NCBI GenBank assembly: GCA_017453245.1
Contig: JAFTKM010000018.1
Span: 10,916 to 74,915, forward strand
Length of the DNA stretch: 64,000 nt
Source of the DNA: Clostridia bacterium
GTDB taxonomy: Bacteria > Bacillota > Clostridia > Oscillospirales > CAG-272
Reading direction: 5' to 3'
Below, in pieces: positions 4,104 to 23,787 of the stretch. The translations under genes were made by a program, and so were the position numbers. Position 1 is the first letter of the stretch, and each line of letters starts with the position of its first letter. The notes beneath the pieces were generated by a model. That model did no database searches and was not told the origin of the DNA. It worked only from the letters and a program-made list of their open reading frames with translations.

Positions 4104-4120
4104 TCTTTCTTTGTAAAATG

Positions 4121-4165
4121 AAAAAATGCTTATAGTATCCCAAGTGGAGCTATAAGCATTTTTTG
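4121..4165. terminator. Bidirectional intrinsic terminator
   Basis: AAAAAATGCTTATAG...CTATAAGCATTTTTT between convergent genes. Confidence 0.7.
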
Positions 4166-5545: not shown

Positions 5546-5548
5546 TTC

Positions 5549-6793: not shown

Positions 6794-6965
6794 TTTCCTA
6801 CTCCTTATAATATATTTGTAGATGGCATAATTTTATCATATGTATCGGTCATTGTCAATGATTTTGTATTGAACTTATGCGACTTTGGAATTTTTGATAC
6901 AAACACGTTGAAAAAACGGTTGCTTTATGATACAATTTAATAAAAGGTATATAGGGAGGATAGAT

Positions 6966-7637
6966 ATGCTCGAGGGAATGAGTGACTTTTTTGAAAACAG
7001 AATAGATGGTTATGACGAGCATATGATGAGAGACATAGAATTTGCCGATGAGTTTTACCCATACACAGCCTCCTGCCTGCCGAGTGCATCGGGCTGCCGT
7101 GTGCTCGACCTTGGCTGCGGCACAGGTATTGAGCTTGAGTTTTATTTTGAGCTTAACCCAACCGCAAAACTAGTTGGCATCGACTTATGTGAGGCAATGC
7201 TCTCCCGCCTTGCCGAGAAGCTTCACAACAGGGATATCGAGCTGATATTAGGCTCGTATTTTGACCTGCCTTTTGGCGACGGGATATACGATGCCGCCGT
7301 TTCGATTGAGAGTCTGCACCATTTCACAAAGGAGGAGAAGACCGCCCTTTATAAAAAGCTCCATAGCGCCTTAAAGGATAACGGTTATTTTATCCTGACA
7401 GACTATTTCGCCTTTAGCGACGAGGAAGAAATGTTCCACCGCCAAAGCCTCGCCGCCCTCAAAAAGGAGCAGGGAATTACCGATAACGGCTTTTATCATT
7501 ACGATACACCCTTGACCGTCGCACACGAAACAGAAGCGCTTCTTGATGCAGGATTTACATCCGTCGAGGTGTTGAAAAGTTGGGGAGCTACGTATACTCT
7601 TAAAGCCATAAAAGGTAAAAATGCAAATAAAACATAA
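6966..7637 (+). CDS. Class I SAM-dependent methyltransferase
   Basis: VLDLGCGTG motif I, YDAAVS..SLHHF, ALKDNGYFI; start at ATG 6966 after GGGAGG. Confidence 0.85.
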   Translation: MLEGMSDFFENRIDGYDEHMMRDIEFADEFYPYTASCLPSASGCRVLDLGCGTGIELEFYFELNPTAKLVGIDLCEAMLSRLAEKLHNRDIELILGSYFDLPFGDGIYDAAVSIESLHHFTKEEKTALYKKLHSALKDNGYFILTDYFAFSDEEEMFHRQSLAALKKEQGITDNGFYHYDTPLTVAHETEALLDAGFTSVEVLKSWGATYTLKAIKGKNANKT

Positions 7638-7638
7638 C

Positions 7639-7681
7639 AAAAAGCGCTTATAACCGCAGGACGTCGGCTATAAGCGCTTTT
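7639..7681. terminator. Bidirectional intrinsic terminator
   Basis: AAAAGCGCTTATA...TATAAGCGCTTTT inverted repeat between convergent genes. Confidence 0.65.
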
Positions 7682-7811
7682 AATATAAGAATAACGAATG
7701 AATTAGTTAATACAGATAAAATGCTTTTCGACCTTGGGAGAAAAGCCTCCTTAATTATTCACTATTCATCATTCATTATTTATTGGAAAACCACCTCGTG
7801 GTTTTCTGGGA

Positions 7812-9614
7812 TCACTTCGTGGTTTTGTAAAGCGGTCCGTATGCAGAGCAGGCTCTGTAATCCTGACCTTCCTTGTCCATTCCGAATGCACCCCAAGAGG
7901 AGGGACGGTAGATCTTTTCCTCATCAACGTTGTGCATGCAAACGGGGATTCTGAGCATAGAGCAGAGTGTGATAACGTCAGCTCCGATATGACCGTAGGA
8001 GATAGCTCCGTGGTTAGCGCCCCAGTTGTTCATAACGTCGTAAGCGCTCTTGAATGCGCCCTTGCCGGTGATTCTCGGTGCGAACCAGGTGCAAGGCCAG
8101 GTGTAGTCTGTTCTTGCCCAGAGCTTATGAGTTACCTCGTCGGGAAGACATACTGTCCAGCCCTCTGCGATCTGCATAACGGGGCCAAGTCCCTTTACCA
8201 TATTAAGACGGAGCATAGTAACGGGCATCTCTGCCTTGGTTACAAATCTCGAGGAGTAGCCGCCGCCGCGGAAGTATCCGAGGTCTGCATAGGGCCAGGT
8301 GGTTGCGGACATACAAGCGTCGATATCCTTGTCGGTCATCTCCCACCACTTCTTCATGATGGGCTCGCCATTCTCGTCCTTTGCCTCGCCCGAGGCGTCA
8401 ACGCAAGCAGCACCCGAGTTGATAAGGTGGATGAAGCCGTCGGCTTCCTTAGCCTTGCCCTCAAGGTCATAGCCGGTCACGCGCTTAACAGCGTCGCCCG
8501 ACCAGTAGGTTCTTACGTCCGCGAATATCTGAGCTCTGTTTGTCAAGAGCTTACCGAAGAGCATGCATACACCGTTGAGAGTGTCGTTCTCGGTAGCGAG
8601 GACGTAGGGCTCTCTTGCGCCGTTCCAGTCAAAGGTGGAGTTGAGGATACTCTCGGGGAAGTCGCAGTTGGGGTAGAAGTCAGTCCACTGTCTCTGTCCC
8701 TGGAAGCCTGCGGCGATGGCGTTGTGACCGACCATCTCCTCCTCGCATCCTACGGGCAGATTCTTGTTACCGTTCATAAGGTCCTTGATGATGCAGGCCA
8801 TCTTTGCGGTGAACTCCCAGTCCTTTGCCTTCTGCTCGTCGCTTCTCTGGAGCTCCTTCGGGTTCTTGTCAAAGTCGGGATTGCACTTTTCCTTTACCCA
8901 AGCGAGCGCCTTCTCATATTCCTTGGCATCGTAGATGCCCTCTGTCATTCGTCTGATGATCTCAACCTCGTCAACGCTCTCAACTCTCATTCCGAGATAC
9001 TCCTCGAAGAAGTCTACGTCAACGATAGAGCCCGCGATACCCATACAGATCGAGCCGATCTGGAGGTAGGACTTGCCTCTCATGGTCTTGACCGCAACTG
9101 CCGCTCTTGCAAAGCGGAGGATCTTCTCGGCAACGTCATCGGGGATAGAGGTATCGTCCATATCCTGTACCTCGTGACCGTAGATACCGAAAGCGGGGAG
9201 TCCCTTCTGAGTGTGAGAAGCGAGAACTGCCGCAAGGTATACCGCGCCGGGACGCTCTGTGCCGTTGAAGCCCCATACAGCCTTTACGGTATTCGGATCC
9301 ATATCCATAGTCTCCGAGCCGTAGCACCAGCAGGGAGTAACTGTGAGCGTGATGTCAACGCCCGCCTTCTTGAACTGATCAGCGCAGGCAGCCGCCTCAG
9401 CGACTCTGCCTATCGTGGTGTCGGAGATAACGACCTTGACGGGCTCACCGTTAGAGTAGCAGAGATTCTTAGTGATAAGCTCTGCCGCCGCCTTGGCCAT
9501 ATTCATAGTCTGATTTTCAAGGCTCTCACGCACCTTGAGAGGTCCGCGTCTGCCGTCGATAGTGGGGCGAATACCGATTACGGGATAATCGCCGATAAGT
9601 CTTGACTTTGCCAT
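7812..9614 (-). CDS. fucI: L-fucose (D-arabinose) isomerase
   Basis: [63 protein letters not shown]. Confidence 0.96.
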
Positions 9615-10539: not shown

Positions 10540-12297
10540 ATGAAAACGATTTTAGAACATCTTAAACCCCATTATAAGAGCCTCGGCGTGGTTATGCTTA
10601 TGCACACGCTTGCGACCGTCACCGAGCTCCTTATGCCGTACGTTATGAGCGACGTTGTTGACAACGGAATTGCCAACTCGGATATAGGCAGGGTAGTGAG
10701 CTCCTCGCTCATTATGCTTCTTCTTGCCACGCTCTCTCTCGTGTCGGCTCTTGTATCAAACAAGATAAATACAAGGGTGACGACCTCATTTTCCTCGTCG
10801 CTCTGCCGCTCGACCTTCAAGAAGATCAACTCCTTGTCCTTCGAGCAGTATTCAAGGATAGGCTCGTCGGGACTTCTCACACGCTCGACCGACGATATCT
10901 TCAACGTTGAGGGCGCCGCAAGCGAGCTCGTTTACACAGTGATCACCGTGCCTATGATGCTTATCGGCGGAACTGCGCTCGCTCTCCTTGCCGATGTGAC
11001 TCTCTCACTAATATTCCTTTTGTGCATACCGCTTATTCTCGCGTTCGTTGTTTTTATCGTAAAGCCGCTCCGAAAGATGTGGGACGTCAGCGACAAATAC
11101 GTCGACGTGCAAAACCGAATAGTCAGAGAAAGGCTTATAGGCATACGAGTTATCCGCGCCTTCAACAACGAGGATAAGGAGCACGCAAGAGCAAAGCACG
11201 CGACCGAGGAAATGGCTAAATATATGATAAAGGCCAACGTCCGCTCGGGCTACATCACACCCGTCGCAATGCTTCTTCTTAACCTCTCGACGGTAGCTAT
11301 ACTTCTTGTCGGCACGTCGAAGGTGACGAGCGGAGTGATCACCGAGGCGGGCGATATAATCGCCGTTATGCAGTACGTCACGCTTATCGCAAACGCGGTC
11401 ATCAATCTCTCCTGGACGATAGCCTGGATACCTCACTTGAGAGTCTCGATATCAAGAATTTCCGAGGTCTTTGATATGCCCGTATGCGATGACGGAGCAG
11501 ACGACCACACCGAGCCGCGCTTCCCGCTTTGTGAGGGCGCAAGGGTAGAGATGAAGGATATCTCCTTCTCATATCCAGATGCTCAGACGGATGCTCTATC
11601 GGGCGTCAGCTTCTATGCCGATAAGGGAGAGACGGTAGCCGTGATCGGCGGTACGGGCTCGGGAAAGAGCACGCTCGTCAAGGTGCTTCTCGCGATGTAT
11701 CCTTATAAAAACGGCGAGATTTTGATTAATAATGTAAACTATAATAGTCTTTCTAAGGGGGAAATACGCCTTGCGTACTCTGTCTCGCTACAAAAGGCGA
11801 TGATCTTTGAGGGTACTATCCGTGATAATATCACTATGGGCAGAGCAGATGCCGCCGATGAGGAAATCGCCACCGCTATCTCGGACGTCGAGCTCGAGGA
11901 GTTTGTGTCATCTAAGGAGGAAGGACTCGATTTTCTGCTCGTAGGACTTGGACAAAACGTCAGCGGAGGACAGAAGCAGAGGATAAATATGGCGAGGACC
12001 GTCATAAGGGAAGCGCCGATCTATATCTTCGACGACAGCTTCTCAGCGCTTGATTATCTCACCGAAAGAAAGATTCAGCAAAAGCTTTTTGCAAGGCTTA
12101 AGGGCAGGACCAAAATACTTGTCACTCAGAGAGTATCGACAGCCCTTGCCGCAGACAGAATTTACGTTATGGACAGAGGCAGGATAAGCGCTGTCGGAAC
12201 TCACGAGGAGCTTCTCCGCTCGTCCGATATCTACCGTGAGATCTGTGTGTCTCAGCTTGGAAAGCGTGTGTTGGGAGGTGATACCCTTGAAGCCTGA
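10540..12297 (+). CDS. Heterodimeric ABC exporter subunit A (TMD+NBD, degenerate site)
   Basis: Six-TM domain; GGTGSGKS, VSGGQKQR, degenerate Walker B IFDDSFSALD. Confidence 0.9.
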   Translation: MKTILEHLKPHYKSLGVVMLMHTLATVTELLMPYVMSDVVDNGIANSDIGRVVSSSLIMLLLATLSLVSALVSNKINTRVTTSFSSSLCRSTFKKINSLSFEQYSRIGSSGLLTRSTDDIFNVEGAASELVYTVITVPMMLIGGTALALLADVTLSLIFLLCIPLILAFVVFIVKPLRKMWDVSDKYVDVQNRIVRERLIGIRVIRAFNNEDKEHARAKHATEEMAKYMIKANVRSGYITPVAMLLLNLSTVAILLVGTSKVTSGVITEAGDIIAVMQYVTLIANAVINLSWTIAWIPHLRVSISRISEVFDMPVCDDGADDHTEPRFPLCEGARVEMKDISFSYPDAQTDALSGVSFYADKGETVAVIGGTGSGKSTLVKVLLAMYPYKNGEILINNVNYNSLSKGEIRLAYSVSLQKAMIFEGTIRDNITMGRADAADEEIATAISDVELEEFVSSKEEGLDFLLVGLGQNVSGGQKQRINMARTVIREAPIYIFDDSFSALDYLTERKIQQKLFARLKGRTKILVTQRVSTALAADRIYVMDRGRISAVGTHEELLRSSDIYREICVSQLGKRVLGGDTLEA

Positions 12298-14080
12298 TAA
12301 GAGTAAAAAGAAAAGGGAAGAGCTCACCTCGTCATTAAAGGTTATAGGCAGGATAATCAAGGACACAAAGCCGATTTTGCCCTCGTTGATCTTAGCGGCA
12401 GTAATCAGCCTTTTGTCCATAATCCTTTCTATGCTCGCGCCCGAGCTCATCGGCACACTCACCGACGGAATATACGATTACGTCACTCTCGGTGCTCCGA
12501 TGGATCTATCCCGCACCGCCAGGATATCCATCATTCTCATCGTCTCATACCTTGCCTCGGGAATACTCAGTATGATTACGATGATCATAATGAACAACAC
12601 CGTCTCGCGCCATTACACCTGCCGTATAAGAGTGGATATGAGCGCAAAGATATCTAAGATACCTATCAAGAAGGTCGACACAACACCAAACGGCGAGATA
12701 ATCTCCCGTATGACCAACGACGTCTCTATTATGGGTGGCTCGGTACACGATATCTTCAATATTATTATAAACGGTGTACTCAAGCTCATTGTAATCACGG
12801 TGCTGATATTTATCTCAGATCCCATAATGGCGTCGGTCATTATTCTATTTGTTCCCGCGTCGATATTCCTCTCCGCAAAGCTTGCCGCAAGGAGTGAGAA
12901 GTACTTCGACCTGAGCCGCGAGGCGGCAGGAAAAATATACTCCGCGACAGAGGAGAATCTCACCGGCTTTGACACCGTCAAGGTATATAATCTCGAGCGT
13001 CACAGACAGGACGGATATGAGAAGCTCTCCGAGGATTACAGAGTAAAATCAGAGCGCGGATATCTTACCTCGGGCGTAGTTCAGCCTATTGTTGCAATAG
13101 TCAACAATCTTGCCTATATAGCTATATGTATCGTCGGCAGTATTCTCGTTATCCGCGGTACTTTGCGAGTTGGCGATCTTATGGCGTTCATTCTTTACAC
13201 TCAGCTTTTCTCAGGACCTCTTGAGTCCATCTCGGGCGGTATGTCTATGATGCAGTCCACCATAGCCTCCGCGCGCAGAGTGTATGAATTCCTCGACTCC
13301 GAGGAGATGAAGGAGCCCGAGCGAAAAGAGCTTGATGAGCCGTGCCTTGGCGCAGTCAAATTCGAGAACGTCGCCTTCTCCTACACCGAGGATAAGCCGC
13401 TTATAAAGAGCCTTGATTTAGATGTTCTCCCGGGACAGAAAATTGCGATAGTAGGCCCTACCGGTGGCGGAAAGACAACAATAGTTAACCTTTTGATGCG
13501 TTTTTACGATCCCGACTCTGGTACTATATCCGTTGACGGAAGATGTATACAAGAGATGAATCGCTCGGATGTCAGAGAGATGTTCTCGATGGTGCTTCAG
13601 GATACGGTCCTCTTCTCGGGTACGGTATACGACAACATCGCCTACGGCAATCCGTCGGCAACAGAGGGCGAGGTCAGGGAAGCGGCGCGCCGCGCTCACA
13701 TTGACTTCTGGATCGACGGATTACCTGACGGATATAACACAAGGATCAACGAGGAGAGCACCAATATCTCGGGCGGCCAGAAGCAGCTTCTCACCATCGC
13801 CCGCGCCTATCTCTCGGACAGACCTATCCTCATACTTGACGAGGCTACCAGCAACGTTGATACCCGCACCGAGCTCATTATCCAACAGACTATGGATGAG
13901 CTTATGAAGGGCAGGACAACCTTTGTTATCGCCCACCGCCTCTCAACCGTTGAGAATGCGGACGTCATACTCGTTGTCAGTAACGGTGACGTTGTGGAGA
14001 AGGGCACACACCGAGAGCTCCTTGCCTCTGGCGGACTCTACTCCGAGATATACAACAGTCAGTACACCATAGTTAAATAA
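12287..14080 (+). CDS. Heterodimeric ABC exporter subunit B (TMD+NBD, consensus site)
   Basis: GPTGGGKT, ISGGQKQ, ILDEATSNVD, IAHRLST; TTG start at 12287 after GGAGGTG. Confidence 0.9.
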   Translation: MKPDKSKKKREELTSSLKVIGRIIKDTKPILPSLILAAVISLLSIILSMLAPELIGTLTDGIYDYVTLGAPMDLSRTARISIILIVSYLASGILSMITMIIMNNTVSRHYTCRIRVDMSAKISKIPIKKVDTTPNGEIISRMTNDVSIMGGSVHDIFNIIINGVLKLIVITVLIFISDPIMASVIILFVPASIFLSAKLAARSEKYFDLSREAAGKIYSATEENLTGFDTVKVYNLERHRQDGYEKLSEDYRVKSERGYLTSGVVQPIVAIVNNLAYIAICIVGSILVIRGTLRVGDLMAFILYTQLFSGPLESISGGMSMMQSTIASARRVYEFLDSEEMKEPERKELDEPCLGAVKFENVAFSYTEDKPLIKSLDLDVLPGQKIAIVGPTGGGKTTIVNLLMRFYDPDSGTISVDGRCIQEMNRSDVREMFSMVLQDTVLFSGTVYDNIAYGNPSATEGEVREAARRAHIDFWIDGLPDGYNTRINEESTNISGGQKQLLTIARAYLSDRPILILDEATSNVDTRTELIIQQTMDELMKGRTTFVIAHRLSTVENADVILVVSNGDVVEKGTHRELLASGGLYSEIYNSQYTIVK

Positions 14081-14094
14081 GCAAAATAACGTGA

Positions 14095-14135
14095 AAGAGC
14101 GAAGACACCGCGTAGGTATCCTCGCTCTTTTTTTA
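14095..14135. terminator. Bidirectional intrinsic terminator
   Basis: AAGAGCGAAGACACC...GGTATCCTCGCTCTTTTTT between convergent genes. Confidence 0.6.
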
Positions 14136-14136
14136 T

Positions 14137-14928
14137 TCACTTCAAAATCAGTTTAATGATATAAGTCGCAAGTCTTTTCGGCAGGACGTTAAGGAGTAGA
14201 AGCAGGGGATTTCTGTTTATCTTATATACCTGCCTCGGTCTCTTTGCCTCGAGTATCTTCAGAGCAAGCTTACCGATCTTTTCGGGCTTTACGTTTCTTG
14301 CCTCGACTCCGTCAACGATTTTCTTGAAGCGCTCTGCGTTGCAGGAGTAGAGCTTCGTTTCCTCACAGAAGCGGTCGAGCGCGGTGGTGGATACTCCGAG
14401 CATTCCCGTGTCCACAGCTCCGGGTCTCAGCACGCTGACCGAAATACCGAGCAGCTGCAGCTCCATTCTCAGCGAGTAGGCGTATTTGTCAAGCGCCGCC
14501 TTCGTCACAGCGTAAATACCGGTAAAGGGAAGCGGATCAAGGGGCGCAAGCTCGCTCGTCGTTATAAGTATTCTGCTGCCCTCTGTGAGCAGGGGTAGGA
14601 AGGTCTTATTCACTCTGTACACCGAGAAAACGTTCACGTCGAAAATGCGTGTGAAATCATTTTCCGACATTTCCACGAGTGAATCGAGGTTATACATTCC
14701 CGCAAAGTGCGCTATCGCATACACCTTGTCGGTCACCTCGCATACCTTTCTGTAAGCCGCATCTATTTCATCTGTGCTCGTCAGATCGACCTCTATTGGT
14801 ATCACACCGTCTTCAGCCTCTCCCACGCGTCTGTCCAGCGCGAAAACGTAGTATCCTTTATCCCTGAAGGCTCTTACCGCCGCATAACCCATACCGCCGT
14901 AAGCACCCGTAACAATCACGTATTTCAT
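14137..14928 (-). CDS. Short-chain dehydrogenase/reductase (SDR)
   Basis: TGAYGGMG Rossmann motif, YAVTK catalytic motif, RPGAVDT. Confidence 0.9.
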   Translation of the reverse strand: MKYVIVTGAYGGMGYAAVRAFRDKGYYVFALDRRVGEAEDGVIPIEVDLTSTDEIDAAYRKVCEVTDKVYAIAHFAGMYNLDSLVEMSENDFTRIFDVNVFSVYRVNKTFLPLLTEGSRILITTSELAPLDPLPFTGIYAVTKAALDKYAYSLRMELQLLGISVSVLRPGAVDTGMLGVSTTALDRFCEETKLYSCNAERFKKIVDGVEARNVKPEKIGKLALKILEAKRPRQVYKINRNPLLLLLNVLPKRLATYIIKLILK

Positions 14929-15047
14929 ATAAATACCGCCTTTCTACGTCAATTTTATCACATCTATCGTCCAAAGTCAACGCTAAAGGCTCATTGTCGG
15001 CAAGAAATGGCACGGCGACATTTCGCGCTTCGCATTTCGCATTTTCC

Positions 15048-15076
15048 TTGACTTCTTCGGGATAAGGTGCTAAAAT
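15048..15076 (+). promoter_or_regulatory. Sigma-A promoter of two-component system 1
   Basis: TTGACT-17 bp-TAAAAT with a TG extension. Confidence 0.6.
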
Positions 15077-15107
15077 AGTAACAACAGTTGTACATAGGAG
15101 GAGCAAA

Positions 15108-15782
15108 ATGTTCCACATACTCGTTGTAGATGATGACAAAAATACGAGGATGTTTTTGCGCGCGGTGCTTGAAAACGCGAAGTACACCGTCTCGGTCGCA
15201 AAAAACGGACTCGATGCTCTTGAGATATTTGACAGAGAGCATATAGACCTCGTCGTGCTCGATATTATGATGCCTGGGATGGACGGCTACGAGCTGACCG
15301 AGTCCTTGCGCGAGGCAGGGAATAACGTCCCCATCCTTATGGTTTCGGCAAAGCAGCTTCCCAAGGATAAGCACAAGGGCTTCCTCGTCGGCACGGATGA
15401 CTACATAACGAAGCCTATCGACGATGAGGAGATGCTCTACCGCATCAAGGCGCTCTTAAGGCGCGCTAAGATAGCAAGCGAGAAGAAGATCGTAATAGGC
15501 GATGTAACTCTCGATTACGATTCTCTCACCGTAACGCGAGGCGAGGAGGTGCAGGAGCTTCCGCAGAAGGAGTTTCAGCTTCTCTATAAGCTCCTTTCCT
15601 ATCCCGGTAAGATCTTTACCAGAATTCAGCTTATGGACGAGATATGGGGAGCGGAGAGCGACACGGGATGGGAGACGGTTACCGTGCATATCGCAAGACT
15701 CCGTAAGCGATTTGACGGCTATCCCGAGTTCTCGATAGAATCGGTCAGAGGACTTGGCTACAAGGCGGTGAAAAGGATATGA
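15108..15782 (+). CDS. OmpR-family response regulator (HssR-like)
   Basis: ILVVDDD, LDIMMPGMDG, GTDDYITKP; winged helix KEFQLLYKLLSYPGKIFTRIQLMDEIWG. Confidence 0.9.
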   Translation: MFHILVVDDDKNTRMFLRAVLENAKYTVSVAKNGLDALEIFDREHIDLVVLDIMMPGMDGYELTESLREAGNNVPILMVSAKQLPKDKHKGFLVGTDDYITKPIDDEEMLYRIKALLRRAKIASEKKIVIGDVTLDYDSLTVTRGEEVQELPQKEFQLLYKLLSYPGKIFTRIQLMDEIWGAESDTGWETVTVHIARLRKRFDGYPEFSIESVRGLGYKAVKRI

Positions 15783-16870
15783 AAAGGATAAGAATAGATA
15801 AGATAAAGATAGACAGAGAAAAGAGTAGATCCCAGTTCTCGCTGACTCTTATTTTTGCGGTTCTCATCTTCGTGGTGCTTCTTGCCGCGATAGCCTTTGC
15901 TACGGCTCTCGTTTACCTTTTCTCCGAGATCGACTTAATATCCGGTCTTAACGATGAGCTCTCACTCGGTACGATTCTTATCTGTATGATAGGCTTCAGT
16001 ATCTTCTTCGGCGCGACCTTCTCGCTCCTTTTGGCACAGATACCCCTGAAGCCGATGAACCGCTTTGTAAGGCATATGAACGCGCTTGCCTCGGGTAATT
16101 TCAAGGCAAGACTCAGATTCCGCGGCACACTCTCCGAGCACAAGCTTATAAAGGAGATAGAGCAGAGCGTAAACAAGCTTGCCGAGGAGCTCGAGAAGAC
16201 CGAAATGCTCCGCAGCGACTTTATCAACAACTTCTCCCACGAGTTTAAGACGCCTATCGTATCCATCGCGGGACTCGCAAGGCTCCTTAACCAAAGTGAC
16301 GTTTCCGACGAGGACAGACGCCGATATCTCAGCGCGATAGAGGACGAGTCGCGCCGCCTCGCTACTATGGCGACGAATATACTCAATCTTACAAAGGTAG
16401 AGAGCCAATCCATACTTACCGGTGTCACCGAGTTCAATCTCTCCGAGCAGATACGCTCCTCGGTCCTCCTGTTTGAGAATAAGTGGGAGAGGAAGGAGCT
16501 TGAGCTCAGCCTCGACTTTGACGAGCATATGATCAATGCCAACGAGGAGCTTCTCAAGGAGGTCTGGATAAACCTTATCGATAACGCCATTAAGTTTTCG
16601 CCGAAGGGCGGCACTCTCGCTATATCCGTGACGGAGAGCAAGTCTTGCTACGGCATCACCGTTGCCAATACCGCAGATGAGATACCCGCCGAGGCGAAGG
16701 ATAGCCTCTTCAAGAAGTTCTATCAGGTAGATAAGTCACACGCCTCCGAGGGCAACGGCATCGGCCTCGCAATTGTCAGCAAGATAGTCGAGCTTCATAA
16801 GGGAACGATCGAGGTAGGTTATTCGGACGGACTCGTTACCTTTACCGTAACTCTTCCTCGCAATCTCTGA
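15779..16870 (+). CDS. Sensor histidine kinase (two TM, HAMP, HisKA, HATPase; HssS-like)
   Basis: FSHEFKTP H-box, NLIDNAIKF, FYQVDKSHASEGNGIGL. Confidence 0.9.
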   Translation: MKRIRIDKIKIDREKSRSQFSLTLIFAVLIFVVLLAAIAFATALVYLFSEIDLISGLNDELSLGTILICMIGFSIFFGATFSLLLAQIPLKPMNRFVRHMNALASGNFKARLRFRGTLSEHKLIKEIEQSVNKLAEELEKTEMLRSDFINNFSHEFKTPIVSIAGLARLLNQSDVSDEDRRRYLSAIEDESRRLATMATNILNLTKVESQSILTGVTEFNLSEQIRSSVLLFENKWERKELELSLDFDEHMINANEELLKEVWINLIDNAIKFSPKGGTLAISVTESKSCYGITVANTADEIPAEAKDSLFKKFYQVDKSHASEGNGIGLAIVSKIVELHKGTIEVGYSDGLVTFTVTLPRNL

Positions 16871-16883
16871 TAAGCAATATTTC

Positions 16884-16918
16884 ATACCCGTTATCCCTCA
16901 GGTAGCGGGTATTTTTTT
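16884..16918 (+). terminator. Intrinsic terminator
   Basis: ATACCCGTTA...TAGCGGGTATTTTTTT. Confidence 0.65.
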
Positions 16919-16932
16919 GCGTTTTCCTCCGA

Positions 16933-16968
16933 GTTTATTTTCAGTTTATAAAACTTTTGTATTATAAT
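16933..16968 (+). promoter_or_regulatory. Candidate OmpR/HssR-type direct-repeat box plus -10 element upstream of fakA
   Basis: GTTTATTTT-CA-GTTTATAAA (11-bp period) ends 10 bp before TATAAT; no canonical -35. Confidence 0.5.
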
Positions 16969-17016
16969 GGTGTAAAATGGACGGAAATGTAATTATTACA
17001 TTGTATCGGAGGCATT

Positions 17017-18651
17017 ATGAACACACAGAAAATAGACGGCAAATGCTATGCCGAGATGCTCAGAGGCGGCACAGCGCTTCTTCTTCGGCACTCGCAGGAA
17101 ATAAATGATCTTAACGTATTTCCCGTTCCGGACGGAGATACGGGAACAAATATGGCAAGGACTATGGACGGCGGTCTCTCGGAGCTTTCAAGCGATATAG
17201 ACAGCATAGGCAAGGTATCGAGCGACTTTACCCACGGCGTTCTCCTTGGCGCGCGAGGCAACTCGGGAGTTATCCTCTCGCAGATCTTCGCGGGCATCAA
17301 CGAGGAGCTCTCCCATTATGACGAGGTAGGCGCAAGGGAGCTTGTCGACGCGTACAAGAAGGGAATTGCCAAGTCCTACTCGGCGGTTCAACAGCCGACC
17401 GAGGGAACTATCCTCACCGTTTTCAGAGAGAGTATAGAATATGCCGAGAAGAATATCACCGATGAGTCGAGTGTTGAGGACTTCTTCCGTATGCATATAG
17501 AGAGCGCCAAGGACTCACTTGCCAGGACAAAGGAGATACTCCCCGCCTTGGCGGAGGCAGACGTTGTTGACTCGGGCGGAGCAGGCTACCTTTACATTAT
17601 AATGGGTATGTATGCGGTGCTCACAGGCGAGCTCACCGGCTCGATATACAAGAGCCCCGAGACACAGACGAGTAAGGTCAATATCGACCTCTTCACCAGA
17701 GATTCAAGGCTTGAGTTTGGCTATTGCACCGAGTTTATGCTCAGACTCACGACAGAGAAGTGCGATCCCGACAGCTTTGAGATAGGCGAGCTCATAACCC
17801 TTCTTGAGTCCCTCGGAGGTGAGAGTATCGTGGCGTATAAGCTCGATGACGTAGTCAAGGTTCACGTGCACACCTTCGCTCCCGGTAACGTCCTTACCGT
17901 GGCTCAGTCCTACGGCGAGTTCCTTACGGTCAAGATAGAGAATATGTCTCTGGGCCACACAGAGGAGCCTAAGCCGAAGAAAGCGAAGAAGCCCTTCTCG
18001 GTGATCGCGGTTGCTCAGGGAGAGGGACTCTCGGCGCTGTTTTCCGAGATGGGCGCTGACGAGATAGTGACGGGAGGTCAGACACTCAACCCCTCGACAG
18101 AGGAGATTATAGCGGCGTTTGACCGCGCGGAAAGCGATGACATCATCGTTCTGCCTAATAATAAGAACGTAATTTTAGCCGCAAAGCAGGCTGCAGAGCT
18201 TTATGACAAGGCGAGAGTACACATCATTCCCACCAAGAATATGATGCAGGGCTACGGCGCGCTTTCGGTTGTGACTCCGGGCATTACCGACGTCTCATCC
18301 CTGGTCGAGAGCGTCACGAGAGCGGCTGAGGGAGTTATCGGAGCCGAGGTCACGATGGCGGTGCGCGACGTTACTCTCGGAGGCAGGGAGATAAAGAAGG
18401 GTGACTACATCGCCATCGCATCCTCTGAAATTACCGCGGTTGCAGGCTCAGCTGAGTCGGCAGTGCTCGAGCATCTTGACTCGGTCGATATGGACGATTA
18501 TGAGATCATAACACTCTTTGTCGGAAGCAACGTGTCGGACATCCGCCGTGTTAAGCTCACCGAGATCATCGAGGAGAAGTACGATATGTGCGAGCTCGAG
18601 GTCTTTGAGAGCGGCAACGAGGTCTACGACTATATGATAGCGATAGAATAA
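17017..18651 (+). CDS. fakA: DAK2-domain fatty acid kinase catalytic subunit (YloV/FakA family)
   Basis: LNVFPVPDGDTGTNM, GARGNSGVILSQ, EGTILTV, VVDSGG, FGYCTEF, KVHVHT, GGQTLNPST, LPNNKNV. Confidence 0.9.
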   Translation: MNTQKIDGKCYAEMLRGGTALLLRHSQEINDLNVFPVPDGDTGTNMARTMDGGLSELSSDIDSIGKVSSDFTHGVLLGARGNSGVILSQIFAGINEELSHYDEVGARELVDAYKKGIAKSYSAVQQPTEGTILTVFRESIEYAEKNITDESSVEDFFRMHIESAKDSLARTKEILPALAEADVVDSGGAGYLYIIMGMYAVLTGELTGSIYKSPETQTSKVNIDLFTRDSRLEFGYCTEFMLRLTTEKCDPDSFEIGELITLLESLGGESIVAYKLDDVVKVHVHTFAPGNVLTVAQSYGEFLTVKIENMSLGHTEEPKPKKAKKPFSVIAVAQGEGLSALFSEMGADEIVTGGQTLNPSTEEIIAAFDRAESDDIIVLPNNKNVILAAKQAAELYDKARVHIIPTKNMMQGYGALSVVTPGITDVSSLVESVTRAAEGVIGAEVTMAVRDVTLGGREIKKGDYIAIASSEITAVAGSAESAVLEHLDSVDMDDYEIITLFVGSNVSDIRRVKLTEIIEEKYDMCELEVFESGNEVYDYMIAIE

Positions 18652-18663
18652 GGAGATATTAAA

Positions 18664-19656
18664 GTGAAGCAATATAAGATAGTAATTGATACAAAGGGCT
18701 CTGACAGAGGCGCCGGGATGATGATCAAGGGCGCATCCTTAGCTCTTCAGAAATACCCCGAGCTCGCGGTCCTTCTTGTCGGTGACACCGACGTTATGCT
18801 TGCCGAGTGCGAGAAAAACGGAATGCCGATGGACCGTGTGGAGCTCCTTGAAGCACCCGAGACCATCACCAACTATGACAGCCCCGCAGAGGCGCTTTTT
18901 GTCAAGCGCGATTCCTCTCTGGTTAAGGCACTTGAGGCACTCTCCGAGCGCGATGACCTTGTCGGTCTTATCAACGCGGGCAGCACGGGCGCGCTTATCG
19001 CGGGCTCTATGCGTTACCTCTCTGGCAAGGACAGAGTCCGTCCCGCTCTGGCGGCGGTCCTCCCTGCGGCAAACGGCGGCTTTACCTGCCTCGTTGATAC
19101 CGGAGCTACCATCGACTGTCCCGCATCCACCCTCGTCCACTTCGCAAGACTCGGCAGAGACTTTATGAAGAATCTCTACCGCATCGAGAATCCGAGAATA
19201 GGCCTTCTCTCCAACGGAGCAGAGCCCACCAAGGGCAATAAGCTCGTCAAGGAGACTCACGCTCTTCTTCGTGATGCCGAGGACATCAACTTCGTCGGCA
19301 ATATCGAGGGCAACAAGGCTCTTTCGGGTGAGTGCGACGTCCTCGTTTGCGACGGCTTTGCAGGCAATCAGGTGCTCAAGGTCACAGAGGGCGCGGCAAC
19401 GAGAATTATTACCGATATCGTGAAATATTCAAAGAAGACAGGTGACGAGAGCCTTATGAAGCTTGTCGGCTACCTTATGGGCATCTACGATTTCAACTCG
19501 CTCGGCGGCGGAGTTATCCTCGGCACCGTCAAGCCGGTTATCAAGGCTCACGGAGCGGCAAACGAGCAGTCTATCGTCAGCACCGCGGGAATTATCCTCA
19601 ATCTCGCAGAAAACAAGGAATTATTCGACAAATCCGCATTTGATATAAAGGAGTAA
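18664..19656 (+). CDS. plsX: Phosphate:acyl-ACP acyltransferase PlsX (divergent)
   Basis: RPAL, NFVGNIEG, DVLVCDGFAGN.VLK..EG, GGVILG, VIKAHG; GTG start after an RBS. Confidence 0.88.
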   Translation: MKQYKIVIDTKGSDRGAGMMIKGASLALQKYPELAVLLVGDTDVMLAECEKNGMPMDRVELLEAPETITNYDSPAEALFVKRDSSLVKALEALSERDDLVGLINAGSTGALIAGSMRYLSGKDRVRPALAAVLPAANGGFTCLVDTGATIDCPASTLVHFARLGRDFMKNLYRIENPRIGLLSNGAEPTKGNKLVKETHALLRDAEDINFVGNIEGNKALSGECDVLVCDGFAGNQVLKVTEGAATRIITDIVKYSKKTGDESLMKLVGYLMGIYDFNSLGGGVILGTVKPVIKAHGAANEQSIVSTAGIILNLAENKELFDKSAFDIKE

Positions 19657-19660
19657 AAAA

Positions 19661-20563
19661 ATGAGCAAGATCAAAATTATGTGTACCTCTACGGGATGCA
19701 TCGAGTACGCGCCCGAGAGATACAGAGACCTTGGTATTGACATTATCAGAGTACATATTCTGTTTGAAGGAAAGGAATATCTTGAAGGCATAGGGCTTGA
19801 TCCCGTTGACTTCTACGAAAGACTCGAGAAGCTTGAGAATCCCAAGAGCAATCTCCCGAGAACGGCTATGCCCACGCCTGCGGAGATACGTGAGCACTAT
19901 GATAAGGCTATCGAGGAGGGCTATGACGAGGCTATCGTCTACGCTATTTCCTCGGGACTCGGCGGCACCTACAATCAGCTTTCCCTCGTTGCCAAGGACT
20001 ACGCTGACAAGATAAAGATACACGTCATCGACACAAAGATCACCAGCTTCGGCGAGGGCTTGCTTGCGATAATGGCGGCAAAAATGGTTGCTAAGGGCTA
20101 CTCGAGCGAAGAGATCCTTAAGGAAACCGCCTGGATGATGAAGAGACAGGAGTTTATGGGCGTTGACGGTAAGCTCGATTACCTTATCTACAACGGCAGA
20201 CTCAAGGGCGGCAAGGCGTTTATGGGCCAGATGCTCAAGATATGTCCCGTCGTCCACTTCAACAGAGAAGGCGAGTGCGTTGCTCTTGAGAGCGTGAGAA
20301 CCGAGAAAAAGGCTCTTATGCGCACCTGCGAGATACTCAAGGAGAAGATCGGAGACAGAAGCCCCGAGGATTATATCCTCTTCCACGTATATACAGGCCC
20401 CTCGCTTCTTGAGAAGCTTATTCCCATAGAAGAGAAGTACGGCATCAAGACCAATCACGAGCCGGTAATTATGTCTCCCGTAAGCGGCAGTCACAACGGA
20501 CCTTGGCTCGCGGGCTACGGTCTCCTCCTCTTAAGACGCGACGACGAGCCCCTGGAGGATTGA
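19661..20563 (+). CDS. fakB: DegV-family fatty-acid-binding protein (FakB)
   Basis: PRTAMP, ISSGLGGTY, VIDTK, LDYLIYNGRL, SHNGP DegV motifs. Confidence 0.85.
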   Translation: MSKIKIMCTSTGCIEYAPERYRDLGIDIIRVHILFEGKEYLEGIGLDPVDFYERLEKLENPKSNLPRTAMPTPAEIREHYDKAIEEGYDEAIVYAISSGLGGTYNQLSLVAKDYADKIKIHVIDTKITSFGEGLLAIMAAKMVAKGYSSEEILKETAWMMKRQEFMGVDGKLDYLIYNGRLKGGKAFMGQMLKICPVVHFNREGECVALESVRTEKKALMRTCEILKEKIGDRSPEDYILFHVYTGPSLLEKLIPIEEKYGIKTNHEPVIMSPVSGSHNGPWLAGYGLLLLRRDDEPLED

Positions 20564-20564
20564 T

Positions 20565-21683
20565 ATGGTAACTGTAAGACGTGTAGAGAGCAAAAAGGAT
20601 ATTAAGGAATTTATCGAATTCCCCTTAAGACTCTATAAGGGCTGTGAATATTTCGTTCCGCCTATGTACGCGGATGAGAAAAAGCTGCTCACAAGCGGTG
20701 GATGCTCGGATACCTATGAGAGCGTCTTTCTCCTTGCTGAGCGCGACGGCAAGACCGTCGGCAGAATTCAGGGAATACTCCATAAGCAGTACAACGAGCT
20801 GAAGGGCGAAAGCCGTGTCCGCTTCAACCGCTTTGACTCGATAGACGATGCCGAGGTCTCCCGCGCGCTTTTCGCCGAGGTAGAGAAGTGGGCAAGAGAG
20901 CGTGGAATGACCGAGGTGTGCGGACCTCTTGGCTTCAGCGACCTTGACAGAGAGGGACTTCTTATCGAGGGCTTTGAGGAGAATTCCACCTTTGAGGAGC
21001 AGTACAACTACGAGTATTACGGAAGGCTCGTTGAGGATGCGGGATACTCCAAGGAGGTAGATTGGCTCGAGTTTGAGCTCCGCGCCCCCGAGAAGAGAAA
21101 CGAGATGCTCTCAAGAGTTGCTAAGCGCGCCCTCGAGATGAACAAGCTTCATATAGCTCCCACCAATATGTCGAAGAAGGCGTATATCGATAAGTACGCC
21201 GATAGCTTCTTTGACTGTCTTGATGAGTGTTACAGCAAGCTTTACGGCACCGTTCCGATCTCTGACGAGCAGAGAAAAGAGCTTATAGAACAATTTCTGC
21301 TTATAATTAACATCAAATTTGCAGTTTTTATCTGTGACGAGAGCGACAGAGTAGTCGCCTTCGGTCTTTGTTTCCCGTCCATCGGTGACGCTCTCAAGAA
21401 GAGCGGCGGCAGACTCACTCTGCCTGCAATTCTCAAGCTCTTGAAGATGGCAAGGAGCCCTAAGGCTATGGACCTCGGACTCGTTGCGGTACGTCCCGAA
21501 TATCAGAATTCGGGTGTCAACGCCGTGCTCGTCGACGGTATCGTAGAGATGCTCTCAAGCGGACTTGTAGAGAAGTGTGAGACTAACCTAAACCTTGAGA
21601 CCAACACCGCCGTTATCGCGCAGTGGAAGTATATGAAGGCAAGACAGCACAAGCGCCGCCGCGCATATCTGAAGCATATATAA
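20565..21683 (+). CDS. Tandem-GNAT N-acyltransferase of the YghO / bacterial ceramide synthase (bCerS)-like family
   Basis: EFIEFP..LY...VPP, VGRI, RF..FDSIDD, KWARERGM...GPLGFSDLDREGLLIEGFE, YNYEYY...E..GY.K..DW.E, LVAVRPEYQNSG, LETN. Confidence 0.72.
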   Translation: MVTVRRVESKKDIKEFIEFPLRLYKGCEYFVPPMYADEKKLLTSGGCSDTYESVFLLAERDGKTVGRIQGILHKQYNELKGESRVRFNRFDSIDDAEVSRALFAEVEKWARERGMTEVCGPLGFSDLDREGLLIEGFEENSTFEEQYNYEYYGRLVEDAGYSKEVDWLEFELRAPEKRNEMLSRVAKRALEMNKLHIAPTNMSKKAYIDKYADSFFDCLDECYSKLYGTVPISDEQRKELIEQFLLIINIKFAVFICDESDRVVAFGLCFPSIGDALKKSGGRLTLPAILKLLKMARSPKAMDLGLVAVRPEYQNSGVNAVLVDGIVEMLSSGLVEKCETNLNLETNTAVIAQWKYMKARQHKRRRAYLKHI

Positions 21684-21706
21684 TTTCATATTAAGGAGAC
21701 AGAACA

Positions 21707-21928
21707 ATGCTTGATAAGTTAAAGGAAATACTCGCTAAGGTCCTCCCCGACCTTGATATGTCCACCGTCACCGCCGACACCCGTCTTATCGATGACCTCG
21801 GCTTTGACTCGCTCGCTCTTATGATGATGTCTATGGAGATCGAGGATGCCTTCGGCTTCCGCTTCAAGGAGTTTGTGAGGTTTGAGACCGTCGGTGACGT
21901 TTGCACATATTTGGAAAGCAGAATATAA
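21707..21928 (+). CDS. Acyl carrier protein
   Basis: 73 aa, acidic, DLGFDSL phosphopantetheine site, EIEDAFG, TVGDV. Confidence 0.88.
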   Translation: MLDKLKEILAKVLPDLDMSTVTADTRLIDDLGFDSLALMMMSMEIEDAFGFRFKEFVRFETVGDVCTYLESRI

Positions 21929-21940
21929 AGAAACTGCTAT

Positions 21941-22410
21941 GCGTGTTATCCGTAACGGAGAACACGCAATGAATTGCAACGATGTTGCATGAATTGACAC
22001 TGCGTGTCATGAATTGCGGCGAACCGCATGAATTGCCCTTGTGGGCGTGAAGTTGTTGCAATTCAATTCATGGAGGAGGCAAACGCCGACGAGAAATCAT
22101 GGCGAAGCCAATTCATGGTGCCTCAGCATCAATTCATCCATAAAACAAGCAGAGCAAGAATATAAGGGTTTTCCTTGTACTCTTGCTCTTGTTTTTTCTT
22201 CTGTCGATATGTGGGCTTTGCCCACTCGATATGCTTTCGCTACGCTCAAGCTCGATATATTGTCGCTTCGCTCCAATTCGATATGAGATAAATCCCTCGT
22301 TTGCGAAGTAAACATATCGAGCCGTAGGCATATAGAGTTGCGTCAGCAACATATCAAAAATCCCGCGAGGGATTTATCTCGATGCGTGTTCTCCGTTAAG
22401 GATAACACGC
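21941..22410. repeat. Composite palindromic element: two hairpin-ladder modules flanked by inverted 27-bp REP-like hairpins
   Basis: 21941-21967 and 22384-22410 are reverse complements (26/27); internal ATGAATT/AATTCAT and TCGATAT/ATATCGA repeats separated by short hairpins. Confidence 0.85.
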
Positions 22411-22473
22411 TAAACCGCTTCTTTCTTTTTTTAGCTACCACCGATGAATTAATAAAGTTTCATATACTCGGTA

Positions 22474-22502
22474 TTGACATATGTGTTTTCGTCTGCTATA
22501 AT
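22474..22502 (+). promoter_or_regulatory. Consensus sigma-A promoter of GntR-ABC operon 1
   Basis: TTGACA-17 bp-TATAAT with a TG extension. Confidence 0.85.
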
Positions 22503-22556
22503 GATGTTAGTACAGATAATACAGATGATACAGACGATACAGAAAGGAGTGGTTAA

Positions 22557-22913
22557 ATGGATAAGGTTTTTTCCGGCAAGCGCGACGTTTATCTTGAGAT
22601 TGCCGAGCGCTATGAGAAATACATCACACTCGGCGTTATCAAGCCGGGGGAGAAGCTCCCGTCGGTCAGGACGGCGGCGACCGAGCTTCGCGTTAATCCC
22701 AACACCGTCCAGCGCGCCTACACTCTGCTTGAGGAGCGCGGATTCATACGCTCTATGCCTAAGAAGGGCGCCTTTGCCATACTCCCGACCGATTCGGGCA
22801 AGGGAAGTGAGACTCTGAAGTCGCTTACTGATGAGCTTATAAAACTCAAGGGTATGGGCGTTTCCAAAGAAGATATTATTTTTACACTGGAGGAGGTATA
22901 TAAAGATGATTGA
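22557..22913 (+). CDS. GntR-family regulator (YtrA subfamily)
   Basis: PGEKLPSVR..A.EL.VNPNTVQRAY..LE; short C-terminus; precedes an ABC ATPase. Confidence 0.9.
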   Translation: MDKVFSGKRDVYLEIAERYEKYITLGVIKPGEKLPSVRTAATELRVNPNTVQRAYTLLEERGFIRSMPKKGAFAILPTDSGKGSETLKSLTDELIKLKGMGVSKEDIIFTLEEVYKDD

Positions 22914-23787
22914 GATAACTAATCTTTCACATTCGCTCGGCGCAAAGACCGTGCTCCGTAAGATCAATCTCGAAATACCCGACAACACCATCCTCGGTAT
23001 CGTCGGTATCAACGGCGCGGGTAAGTCAACGCTCCTTCGTCTTTTGGCGGGCGTATATCTTCCCGACTCGGGATATATCAGATATGATGACAGAAGCCCT
23101 GCCGATGCCGAGACGAGGAAGGACATCTTCTTCCTCCCCGACGATCCCTATTACACCGCGTTTATGACGCCAAACACACTTTTCGACTTCTATAAGACCT
23201 TCCATCCCGCAATTGACAGAGAATCCTACGACCGTCTGCTCGGCGCGTATAAGATAGATCCCGTCGGCAAGGTTCGTAATTTCTCAAAGGGTATGCGCCG
23301 TCAGGTATTCATAGCGCTTGCCCTCGCGGTAAAGCCCAGATACCTTCTGCTTGACGAGGCGTTTGACGGACTTGATCCCTTATCCAGAAGGATTTTCAAG
23401 GATGCGATAATCTCGCTCGTTGAGGAAGGAAAGACCACCGTCCTTATCGCCAGCCACTCTCTGCGTGAGCTTGAGGACTTCTGCGACCGCTTTATCCTCA
23501 TAGACAATAACGTAATCAAGGATCAGGGCGACATAGCAGAGCACGTAGGCAGACTCTGTAAGTTTGAGCTCGCATTCACCGAGGCGGTCAACGAGGGGCT
23601 CTTCGCAGGACTTCCCACAGCCTCGCTTATGATCAAGAACAGATTCGTACAGATAGTCCTCGAGGGCGATAGCGACGAGATGAGAGAAAGACTTGAGGCT
23701 CTTTCTCCCGCAGTTATAGACGAAATGCCGCTTGACTTTGAGGAAAGCTTCATCCACGACGTTAGAAAGGAGGGAATGATACTATGA
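22906..23787 (+). CDS. ABC transporter ATP-binding protein (YtrB-like)
   Basis: GINGAGKST, FSKGMRR, LLLDEAFDGLD, IASH. Confidence 0.9.
   Translation: MIEITNLSHSLGAKTVLRKINLEIPDNTILGIVGINGAGKSTLLRLLAGVYLPDSGYIRYDDRSPADAETRKDIFFLPDDPYYTAFMTPNTLFDFYKTFHPAIDRESYDRLLGAYKIDPVGKVRNFSKGMRRQVFIALALAVKPRYLLLDEAFDGLDPLSRRIFKDAIISLVEEGKTTVLIASHSLRELEDFCDRFILIDNNVIKDQGDIAEHVGRLCKFELAFTEAVNEGLFAGLPTASLMIKNRFVQIVLEGDSDEMRERLEALSPAVIDEMPLDFEESFIHDVRKEGMIL

Follow-up and report, generated by a model that had tools for sequence, protein, structure and literature searches.

The DNA analysed here is a stretch of 64,000 nucleotides (the window) from contig JAFTKM010000018.1 of a Clostridia bacterium, and its positions 17017–21928 carry a block of five genes encoding a fatty acid kinase (FakA2), a phosphate acyltransferase (PlsX2), a fatty-acid-binding protein (FakB), a tandem acyltransferase of the GNAT family and an acyl carrier protein (ACP2). 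The gene set is best explained as an accessory, self-contained second line of fatty-acid activation that would end in an amide-forming enzyme, in a gut Clostridium that appears to be auxotrophic for fatty acids. Scavenged fatty acid would be converted to acyl-phosphate, passed to a dedicated acyl-ACP and used by the GNAT for the N-acylation of an amine, a pathway that we infer from gene content and neighbourhood and to which we assign a probability of about one half. The five genes, all on the + strand, are:

17017–18651, + strand: fakA2, 544 aa, ATG start; catalytic subunit of fatty acid kinase, a DAK2 fusion of the YloV type, extra copy
18664–19656, + strand: plsX2, 330 aa, GTG start; diverged phosphate acyltransferase paralogue
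19661–20563, + strand: fakB, 300 aa; DegV-family fatty-acid-binding subunit
20565–21683, + strand: YghO-like tandem GNAT acyltransferase, 372 aa
21707–21928, + strand: ACP2, dedicated acyl carrier protein, 73 aa; DSL serine and Met-rich helix II

The genes are separated by gaps of 12, 4, 1 and 23 bp, and a GGAGG/AGGAG-like Shine-Dalgarno site lies 6–10 nt before each of the five starts. The initial annotation of the window had proposed five co-oriented genes with FakA, PlsX, FakB, GNAT and ACP identities, and both parts hold, as open reading frames (ORFs) are found at exactly the positions listed and the identities are borne out by Pfam and NCBIfam profile matches. FakA2 is matched by PF02734 (Dak2), PF21645 (FakA_M) and PF13684 (FakA_C) and reaches 526.4 bits with TIGR03599 (cut-off 396.1), and it falls below the S. 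aureus-type equivalog NF038248 (409.8 against a cut-off of 975). PlsX2 matches PF02504 at 231.8 bits over profile positions 2–307 of 324, i.e. its whole length, and lies just below the equivalog cut-off of TIGR00182 (226.9 against 243.4). FakB scores 187 bits with PF02645 and 206 bits with TIGR00762 (cut-off 99.7) and is below the cut-off of the FakB1 equivalog (123 against 350). The sole Pfam match of the GNAT is a weak one to PF00583 (23 bits), and ACP2 is matched by PF00550 (PP-binding) at 41.8 bits and is below the cut-offs of all 13 NCBIfam ACP models. The Pfam scan found neither an adenylation nor a condensation domain in the five block proteins. A 298-aa ORF on the − strand over fakB (19598–20494) was rejected as an antisense artefact; similar antisense ORFs displaced fakB at 13 loci when ORFs were picked greedily.

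Among 24 other genomes of the genus (G001–G024; the window genome, G000, is a 1.59-Mb metagenome-assembled genome (MAG) that is 64% complete), the GNAT occurs at 69–85% identity in four (G003, G005, G007 and G023), three of which (G023, G003 and G007) retain the order fakA-plsX-fakB-GNAT-ACP, and five further genomes carry 39–44% identical paralogues only. A scan of 185,579 species genomes returned 139 relatives of the GNAT, the best 80 of which were examined; these 80, two being the G007 and G023 contigs, all derive from gut, rumen or similar MAGs of Clostridia and Bacilli. Loci were split at 58% GNAT identity, a threshold set after inspection of the table, and enough flank was defined as 3.7 kb or more before the GNAT gene and 300 bp or more after it. 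The partner genes, the ACP gene directly downstream, a response regulator with histidine kinase (RR+HK) and a short-chain dehydrogenase/reductase (SDR) are distributed as follows:

GNAT at least 58% identical, 48 loci: all four partners in 38, at least one partner in 47, ACP directly downstream in 46, RR+HK in 15, SDR in 2
GNAT at least 58% identical, enough flank, 38 loci: all four partners in 34, at least one partner in 38, ACP directly downstream in 37, RR+HK in 15, SDR in 2
GNAT below 58% identical, enough flank, 23 loci: all four partners in 2, at least one partner in 10, ACP directly downstream in 2, RR+HK in 0, SDR in 0

Conservation of the cluster across Clostridia MAGs, a point raised by the initial annotation, is evident from the presence of all five genes in 34 of the 38 orthologous loci with enough flank, and because the order recurs to this extent the arrangement is not due to chance. 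fakA is present in 36 of these 38 loci, and a variant order, plsX-GNAT-ACP-fakB-fakA, is found at three loci (L063, L064 and L069). The flanks vary, with a two-component system and GntR-ABC genes in the window and in G023, and truB/ACT-DUF711 and nrdG-nrdD in G003 and G007; since the flanks differ between genomes, the five-gene block is itself the unit. The block, and above all its GNAT-ACP pair, is thus conserved in many gut MAGs within varied surroundings. Overall the block is rare: in an even draw of the class, none of the 398 other genomes scored has a block-type PlsX, and seven PlsX matches at E ≤1e-60 among them are just 39–41% identical. One MAG carries two full copies of the block (L075 and L084, on CAYWPS010000004 and CAYWPS010000018), each with RR+HK upstream, and its two GNATs are 66% and 87% identical to that of the window.

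FakA, PlsX, FakB and ACP of the block are old, diverged extra copies that stand beside a housekeeping set. When 40 relatives were scored for plsX and ACP, every genome at least 90% complete had an ACP and a plsX of 300–361 bits (PF02504); in complete genomes of the genus the plsX score is 300–333 bits, whereas block-type copies score 231–258. Two plsX, two ACP and two fakA genes are present in G007 (93% complete), whose block plsX scores 258 bits, whose housekeeping plsX lies in the context topA-trmFO-plsX-rnc and whose other fakA adjoins a DegV gene. G005 has a second ACP and a block plsX in the form of a 59-bit fragment, besides housekeeping copies. PlsX2 is 57–100% identical to block-type copies and 31–39% identical to housekeeping PlsX, and this clean gap is the real observation behind the split; a quick tree, in which the groups were labelled by identity to the window PlsX, separates 42 block-type from 25 other rows (SH-aLRT 100, stems 1.15 and 0.51). 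Identity between FakA2 and the other G007 FakA is 41%, FakB is 30% identical to the DegV protein beside that fakA, and ACP2 is 33% identical to the G007 housekeeping ACP.

The gene content of the genus looks like that of a fatty-acid auxotroph that lacks type II fatty acid synthesis (FASII). A ketoacyl synthase (PF00109) is found in one of the 24 other genus genomes, within an 811-aa ORF, and FabA/FabZ in none of five genomes searched, whereas all five have PlsY and PlsC-like genes; with ketoacyl synthase and FabA/FabZ near-absent and PlsY and PlsC present, exogenous fatty acid would be the sole acyl source. The same five genomes all encode AMP-binding ligases, and four of them give a match to the phosphopantetheinyl transferase family. 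FakA is present in just 13 of the 24 other genus genomes. In G004, which is 99% complete and has no FakA, an AMP-binding gene (C39:21368-23244) and the housekeeping ACP gene share a strand and are ∼480 bp apart; the former is probably an acyl-ACP synthetase route.

Fatty-acid binding by FakB, phosphorylation by FakA and the reversibility of the PlsX reaction are established for these families. In the proposed pathway, FakB (FakB2) would bind exogenous fatty acid and FakA2 would phosphorylate it to acyl-phosphate, after which PlsX2, working in the acyl-ACP-forming direction, would place the acyl group on the phosphopantetheine of ACP2. The GNAT would then dock acyl-ACP2 at its C-terminal CoA/pantetheine site and N-acylate an amine that the block does not make, held by the highly conserved N-terminal half of the protein, and the product would be an N-acyl amide such as a lipoamino acid, an N-acyl amine or an N-acylated lipid. 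The GNAT step is proposed because of the near-invariant GNAT-ACP adjacency, the fold, and a family tie to lipid-amine acylation, itself drawn from the YghO homologues that adjoin serine palmitoyltransferase (Spt) and ACP genes in sphingolipid producers (see below). In agreement with the direction proposed for PlsX2, plsX of E. faecalis lies beside acpB, whose product, AcpB, favours the formation of acyl-ACP by PlsX (PMC10449490, in part).

The C-terminal domain of the GNAT contains a canonical pyrophosphate/pantetheine loop, YQNSGVNA (VRPEYQNSGVNA), and the protein also has a conserved ETN/E345 motif. Most residues that are invariant across the family (G66, R67, L102, G120, P121, G136 and G160) are in the N-terminal half, which may form the acceptor site. 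D34-S35-L36 of ACP2 is invariant in 31 of 31 block ACPs, and helix II is Met-rich (DSLALMMMSMEIEDAF) instead of acidic, which suggests private partners for this carrier. Prediction of a GNAT-ACP2 complex gave a median score of 0.43, against 0.01 for the best of three controls, with at least 91% of contacts in agreement between runs and a partner pLDDT (predicted local distance difference test) of at least 80. In the calibration, 116 of 157 solved complexes passed the mark, as did 2 of 215 mismatched pairs, and those passing at ≤0.60 comprise just 18 of the 157 solved complexes together with both mismatches that passed, so that the model lends weak support to the pairing.

The initial annotation had described the GNAT as YghO-like, and full-length homology to E. 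coli YghO is seen both by BLASTP (25% identity, E 2e-36, residues 4–372) and by hhalign (probability 100, E 2.9e-49). The family of ∼375-aa proteins to which the window GNAT belongs is large, with 6261 matches among 8000 candidates scored and, at E ≤0.001, 4482 cluster representatives. Neither Pfam nor NCBIfam has a dedicated model for it, no NCBIfam model matches YghO, and a literature search on YghO returned no functional study. Annotations of family members can mislead, e.g. ‘putative DNA-binding transcriptional regulator’ in E. coli K-12 (L037:19044-20216) and ‘dATP pyrophosphohydrolase’ in Roseomonas (L142:11956-13113). In K-12, an IS5 element adjoins the 5′ end of yghO.

A further proposal, that the YghO family contains the bacterial ceramide synthase (bCerS), gains support from synteny. 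A tblastn search of plasmids with YghO gave 49 records, four of which were examined. On a Sphingomonas parapaucimobilis plasmid, the gene for a homologue that shares 39.7% identity with YghO is found 6 kb from genes for an NAD(P)H-binding protein, an ACP and an Spt (833 bits with NF047603, cut-off 670), and on a Roseomonas mucosa plasmid the homologue is ∼10 kb from ACP and Spt genes (613 bits with NF047599, cut-off 500); both plasmids are alphaproteobacterial. The homologue of an Acidisoma plasmid divergently adjoins an SDR and an AONS-family enzyme that is below the Spt cut-offs. In Caulobacter, spt, acp, cerR and the ACP synthetase gene are CCNA_01220–01223 and bcerS is CCNA_01212 (PMC9393093, in part), and because the Spt-linked plasmid layouts match this arrangement, the YghO family includes the probable bCerS. 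The homologue on a Bacteroides finegoldii plasmid has no lipid neighbours, in keeping with a published statement that in Bacteroidota these genes are not linked (PMC11334938, in part).

These Spt-linked proteins served as proxies for the characterised Caulobacter enzyme, and in that comparison the window GNAT shares 28% identity with the Sphingomonas protein (E 2e-38), and with the Acidisoma homologue the figure is 24% (E 9e-31). In a quick tree of 74 rows, one of them Spt-linked, YghO and the Sphingomonas protein form a clade of their own (100, stem 1.61), and the window GNAT falls in a separate 15-row clade (97) of block-type GNATs. Because the protein lies outside the Spt-linked clade, its description as ‘bCerS-like’ in the initial annotation is retained at the level of the superfamily and not at that of the clade. 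The acceptor suggested there, a sphingoid base scavenged from the diet, the host or Bacteroidota, would make the GNAT a bCerS-type enzyme of ceramide salvage, a special case of the amide pathway. The shared superfamily and the animal-gut habitat of GNAT bearers speak for it, and besides the position in the tree, the size of the family and its spread across many non-sphingolipid organisms speak against. No AONS/Spt-like gene was found in the block-bearing genomes, where the best TIGR01822 scores are 19.6–23.3 bits in G000, G003, G007 and G023, with none in G005, as compared with 226–272 bits for the plasmid AONS-family enzymes (two certified Spt, 266 and 272); the initial annotation had noted none in the window. 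Nor is a CerR-type reductase conserved, the neighbouring SDR being found in 2 of 38 loci. Taken together, ceramide salvage appears highly improbable.

Several observations weigh against the amide pathway. A single copy each of plsX, ACP and fakA is seen in the 64% complete window genome, all inside the block, so that the accessory status rests on the relatives. Taken alone, this finding would satisfy the part of the refutation set out in the initial annotation that concerns sole copies, but the relatives tell otherwise, G007 having two of each. The GNAT-ACP2 score is weak by the predictor's own calibration. Neither an acceptor-making nor an export gene is conserved beside the block: apart from the five genes, RR+HK and the antisense artefact over fakB, clustering of the neighbouring ORFs showed no family at more than 6 of 48 loci. 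The full relay is also not obligatory, as indicated by fakA-fakB-GNAT triads that have neither plsX nor ACP (L045, L086, L090, L094 and G027) and by the arrangement truB-GNAT-ACP-nrdG, with neither fak nor plsX (L059 and L066). Finally, the donor loop of the GNAT is of the ordinary acyl-CoA type, and with AMP-binding ligases in all five genomes searched an acyl-CoA donor is possible, and the closest solved folds are those of acetyltransferases.

The triads bear on a reading in which the GNAT would take its acyl group directly from acyl-phosphate, free or bound to FakB, with PlsX2 and ACP2 buffering or storing the acyl pool. The gap of 1 bp between fakB and the GNAT gene in the window is in keeping with this, whereas the ACP gene found directly after the GNAT gene at 37 of 38 loci and the pantetheine/pyrophosphate-type loop are not, and no GNAT is known to use acyl-phosphate. 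We consider direct use of acyl-phosphate very unlikely.

The GNAT-ACP pairs that persist in the absence of fak and plsX would suit a second supply line for phospholipids, in which FakAB provides acyl-phosphate for PlsY, PlsX2 and ACP2 provide acyl-ACP for PlsC, perhaps from a special class of fatty acid, and the GNAT acts as an acyl-CoA:ACP transacylase. GNAT loading domains are known to load ACP in some polyketide synthases. In three loci (L102, L117 and L118) the GNAT gene is followed by a housekeeping-type plsX (36–37% identical to PlsX2) and then by an ACP gene, and in L104 it is again followed by a housekeeping-type plsX (36–37%), the contig ending before the ACP position. FakA, FakB, PlsX and ACP are, moreover, the exact set that a FASII-less Firmicute requires to make phospholipid from exogenous fatty acid (PMC10449490, in part). 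Set against this are the housekeeping plsX and ACP that the genomes already own and the patchy distribution of the block, found in 4 of the 24 other genus genomes, with block-type PlsX in none of the 398 of the class. The conserved N-terminal pseudo-GNAT half, with invariant G66, R67, G120, P121 and G136, also suggests a specific small acceptor and not a carrier protein. On balance a phospholipid supply line seems unlikely.

The fold raises the possibility of a plain acetyltransferase, merely co-transcribed with the other genes, that would move the acetyl group of acetyl-CoA to a small amine or to a protein (e.g. in regulating Fak or ACP). An AlphaFold2 model built from 54 sequences (pLDDT 94.5) has two GNAT domains in one chain, and Foldseek matches it to 2wpw and 7q3a at TM 0.56–0.60. 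Structural Z scores (VIA) are 21.8 for 7q3a, 21.3 for 5kf1, 19.9 for MshD (1ozp) and 13.8 for N-myristoyltransferase. These tandem GNATs, MAB_4324 (7q3a), a GlcN N-acetyltransferase (5kf1) and MshD (1ozp), share the fold over 276–304 residues, whereas their identity to the window protein is 8–12% and they are acetyl-CoA enzymes, none of them ACP-linked. As a single sequence the GNAT has no match in the PDB at E ≤1, and its profile finds there only generic GNAT motif matches of the RimI type over residues 298–343. Paralogues in unrelated contexts, and the absence of all four partner genes from 13 of the 23 flanked loci with a GNAT below 58% identity, would also accord with acetyl transfer. Rearranged architectures nevertheless still pair the GNAT with ACP, fak or plsX, and YghO homologues are tied to Spt-ACP lipid genes, which makes a plain acetyltransferase distinctly unlikely.

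A paralogue in the window genome, 37% identical to the block GNAT (G000:C23:64092-65282; L139:6093-7283), lies between genes for an HAD hydrolase and a GtrA-like membrane protein, and the family is functionally diverse within one genome. A further lipid-flavoured context for a GNAT homologue is found at L030 (G037:C8), where positions 3512–8008 encode MarR, DegV, a 452-aa protein with a weak alcohol-acetyltransferase match, DUF6320 and the GNAT homologue.

The proposed amide pathway may be set beside three known systems and YghO itself. The Firmicutes FakA/FakB-PlsX pathway, with plsX-acpB of E. faecalis, uses the same enzyme families and places an auxiliary ACP beside plsX (PMC10449490, in part), whereas here four diverged second copies are gathered in one operon, in which the gene for a tandem GNAT separates fakB from the ACP gene, FabT-type or fab genes are not nearby and PlsX2 forms a long-branch clade of its own. 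bCerS of Caulobacter (CCNA_01212/CC_1154, with Spt, AcpR and AasR) shares the YghO superfamily, as judged from the Spt-linked Sphingomonas and Roseomonas homologues, and in both cases a dedicated ACP serves a lipid-amide pathway, proposed in ours (PMC11324152, in part); bCerS is cytoplasmic and has no predicted transmembrane segments (PMC11087976, in part). The window GNAT differs in belonging to another clade, with 24–28% identity to the proxies and no spt found, and the Caulobacter ACP works with Spt and receives its acyl group from an acyl-ACP synthetase, whereas ACP2 would be loaded by Fak/PlsX. E. coli YghO (b2981), which carries the annotation of a putative DNA-binding regulator, is homologous to the GNAT over its full length, yet it lacks the glycine of the YQxxG loop and has no Fak, PlsX or ACP genes among its listed neighbours. 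In function, the closest counterpart is the route, resembling a nonribosomal peptide synthetase, by which gut Clostridia make fatty acid amides (OaaA adenylation, OaaACP and OaaC condensation); it shares with the block its habitat and the logic of a fatty acid placed on a private carrier and an amine from outside the cluster (PMC13310621, in part). In the window, a kinase and a phosphotransacylase would replace the adenylation enzyme and the GNAT would replace the condensation domain. No description of FakA, FakB, PlsX and a GNAT together was found in the literature searched; the parts are known, and the wiring is absent from that literature.

Upstream of the block, the window contains the following features:

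14137–14928, − strand: divergent SDR (PF00106); local neighbour, outside the conserved unit
15108–15782, + strand: OmpR/PhoB-type response regulator (PF00072 and PF00486); candidate regulator and frequent upstream neighbour
15779–16870, + strand: histidine kinase, HAMP-HisKA-HATPase (PF00512 and PF02518)
16884–16912, + strand: terminator-like hairpin of 12 pairs with a TTTTTTT tail after the kinase gene, by consensus match
16938–16965, + strand: weak promoter-like site before fakA2, TTTTCA-16-TATTAT, 9/12, by consensus match

RR+HK genes precede the block at 15 of 38 loci, with identities of 50–93% for the regulator and 35–81% for the kinase. On inspection, the kinase has two N-terminal hydrophobic segments with a loop of ∼15 residues between them, a layout that we read as intramembrane-sensing and not as a large outside domain. 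Where present, the two-component system probably activates the operon, perhaps on sensing free membrane fatty acid. The initial annotation had called this pair HssRS-like, which was not specifically borne out, as the 25 top-ranking NCBIfam rows of either protein belong to generic OmpR/PhoB and HisKA families, none reaching its cut-off, in a library that may lack an Hss model. The SDR is not part of the conserved unit, a match above 60% identity being present in 2 of 38 loci. Its assignment as CerR/KdsR was rejected on the same distribution and on an NF049977 score of 95.5 bits against a cut-off of 400. Just before the SDR gene, two adjacent genes of the ABC_membrane plus ABC_tran half-transporter type (window positions 10540–14080) are of the heterodimeric exporter kind; their ATPase domains gave no strong matches beside other clusters, and the clustering gave no recurring neighbour family.

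Downstream, the ACP2 gene is followed by a 628-bp spacer (21929–22556) of dense nested inverted repeats, among them arms of 47 nt at 21922–21968 and 22383–22429, four copies of CATGAATTG, three copies of CAATTCATG and a hairpin at 22143–22197 followed by a T-run. Two sub-elements of the spacer recur at 70–80% identity on at least 10 other contigs of the window genome, and the element is a dispersed repeat resembling repetitive extragenic palindromes or miniature inverted-repeat transposable elements (REP/MITE-like). Rfam gave no match in positions 14000–23000 at E ≤0.1.

To our knowledge, Fak and PlsX have been known only as a feeder of phospholipid synthesis, and the loading of carrier proteins for lipid amides only by adenylating enzymes or FASII. 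The block would, at odds we put somewhat short of even, represent an adenylation-independent route to fatty-acid amides, in which a kinase and a ‘reverse’ PlsX load a private ACP and a YghO-family GNAT couples the acyl group to an amine. By such a route, under the control of a membrane-sensing two-component system, FASII-less Clostridia of the rumen and hindgut may convert dietary or host fatty acids to N-acyl lipids that act as signals, membrane lipids or detoxified conjugates. The five proteins are small and soluble, and the hypothesis may be of interest to bacterial lipid biochemists, to whom the block also offers a natural PlsX/ACP pair apparently tuned to the acyl-ACP-forming direction. 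If true, it would constitute a new wiring, in which a private ACP loaded by a kinase and a phosphotransacylase feeds an N-acyltransferase and amide lipids are made from scavenged fatty acids, and it would provide the first function outside sphingolipid producers for the large YghO family, which has thousands of members and includes the 139 GNAT relatives among the 185,579 species genomes.

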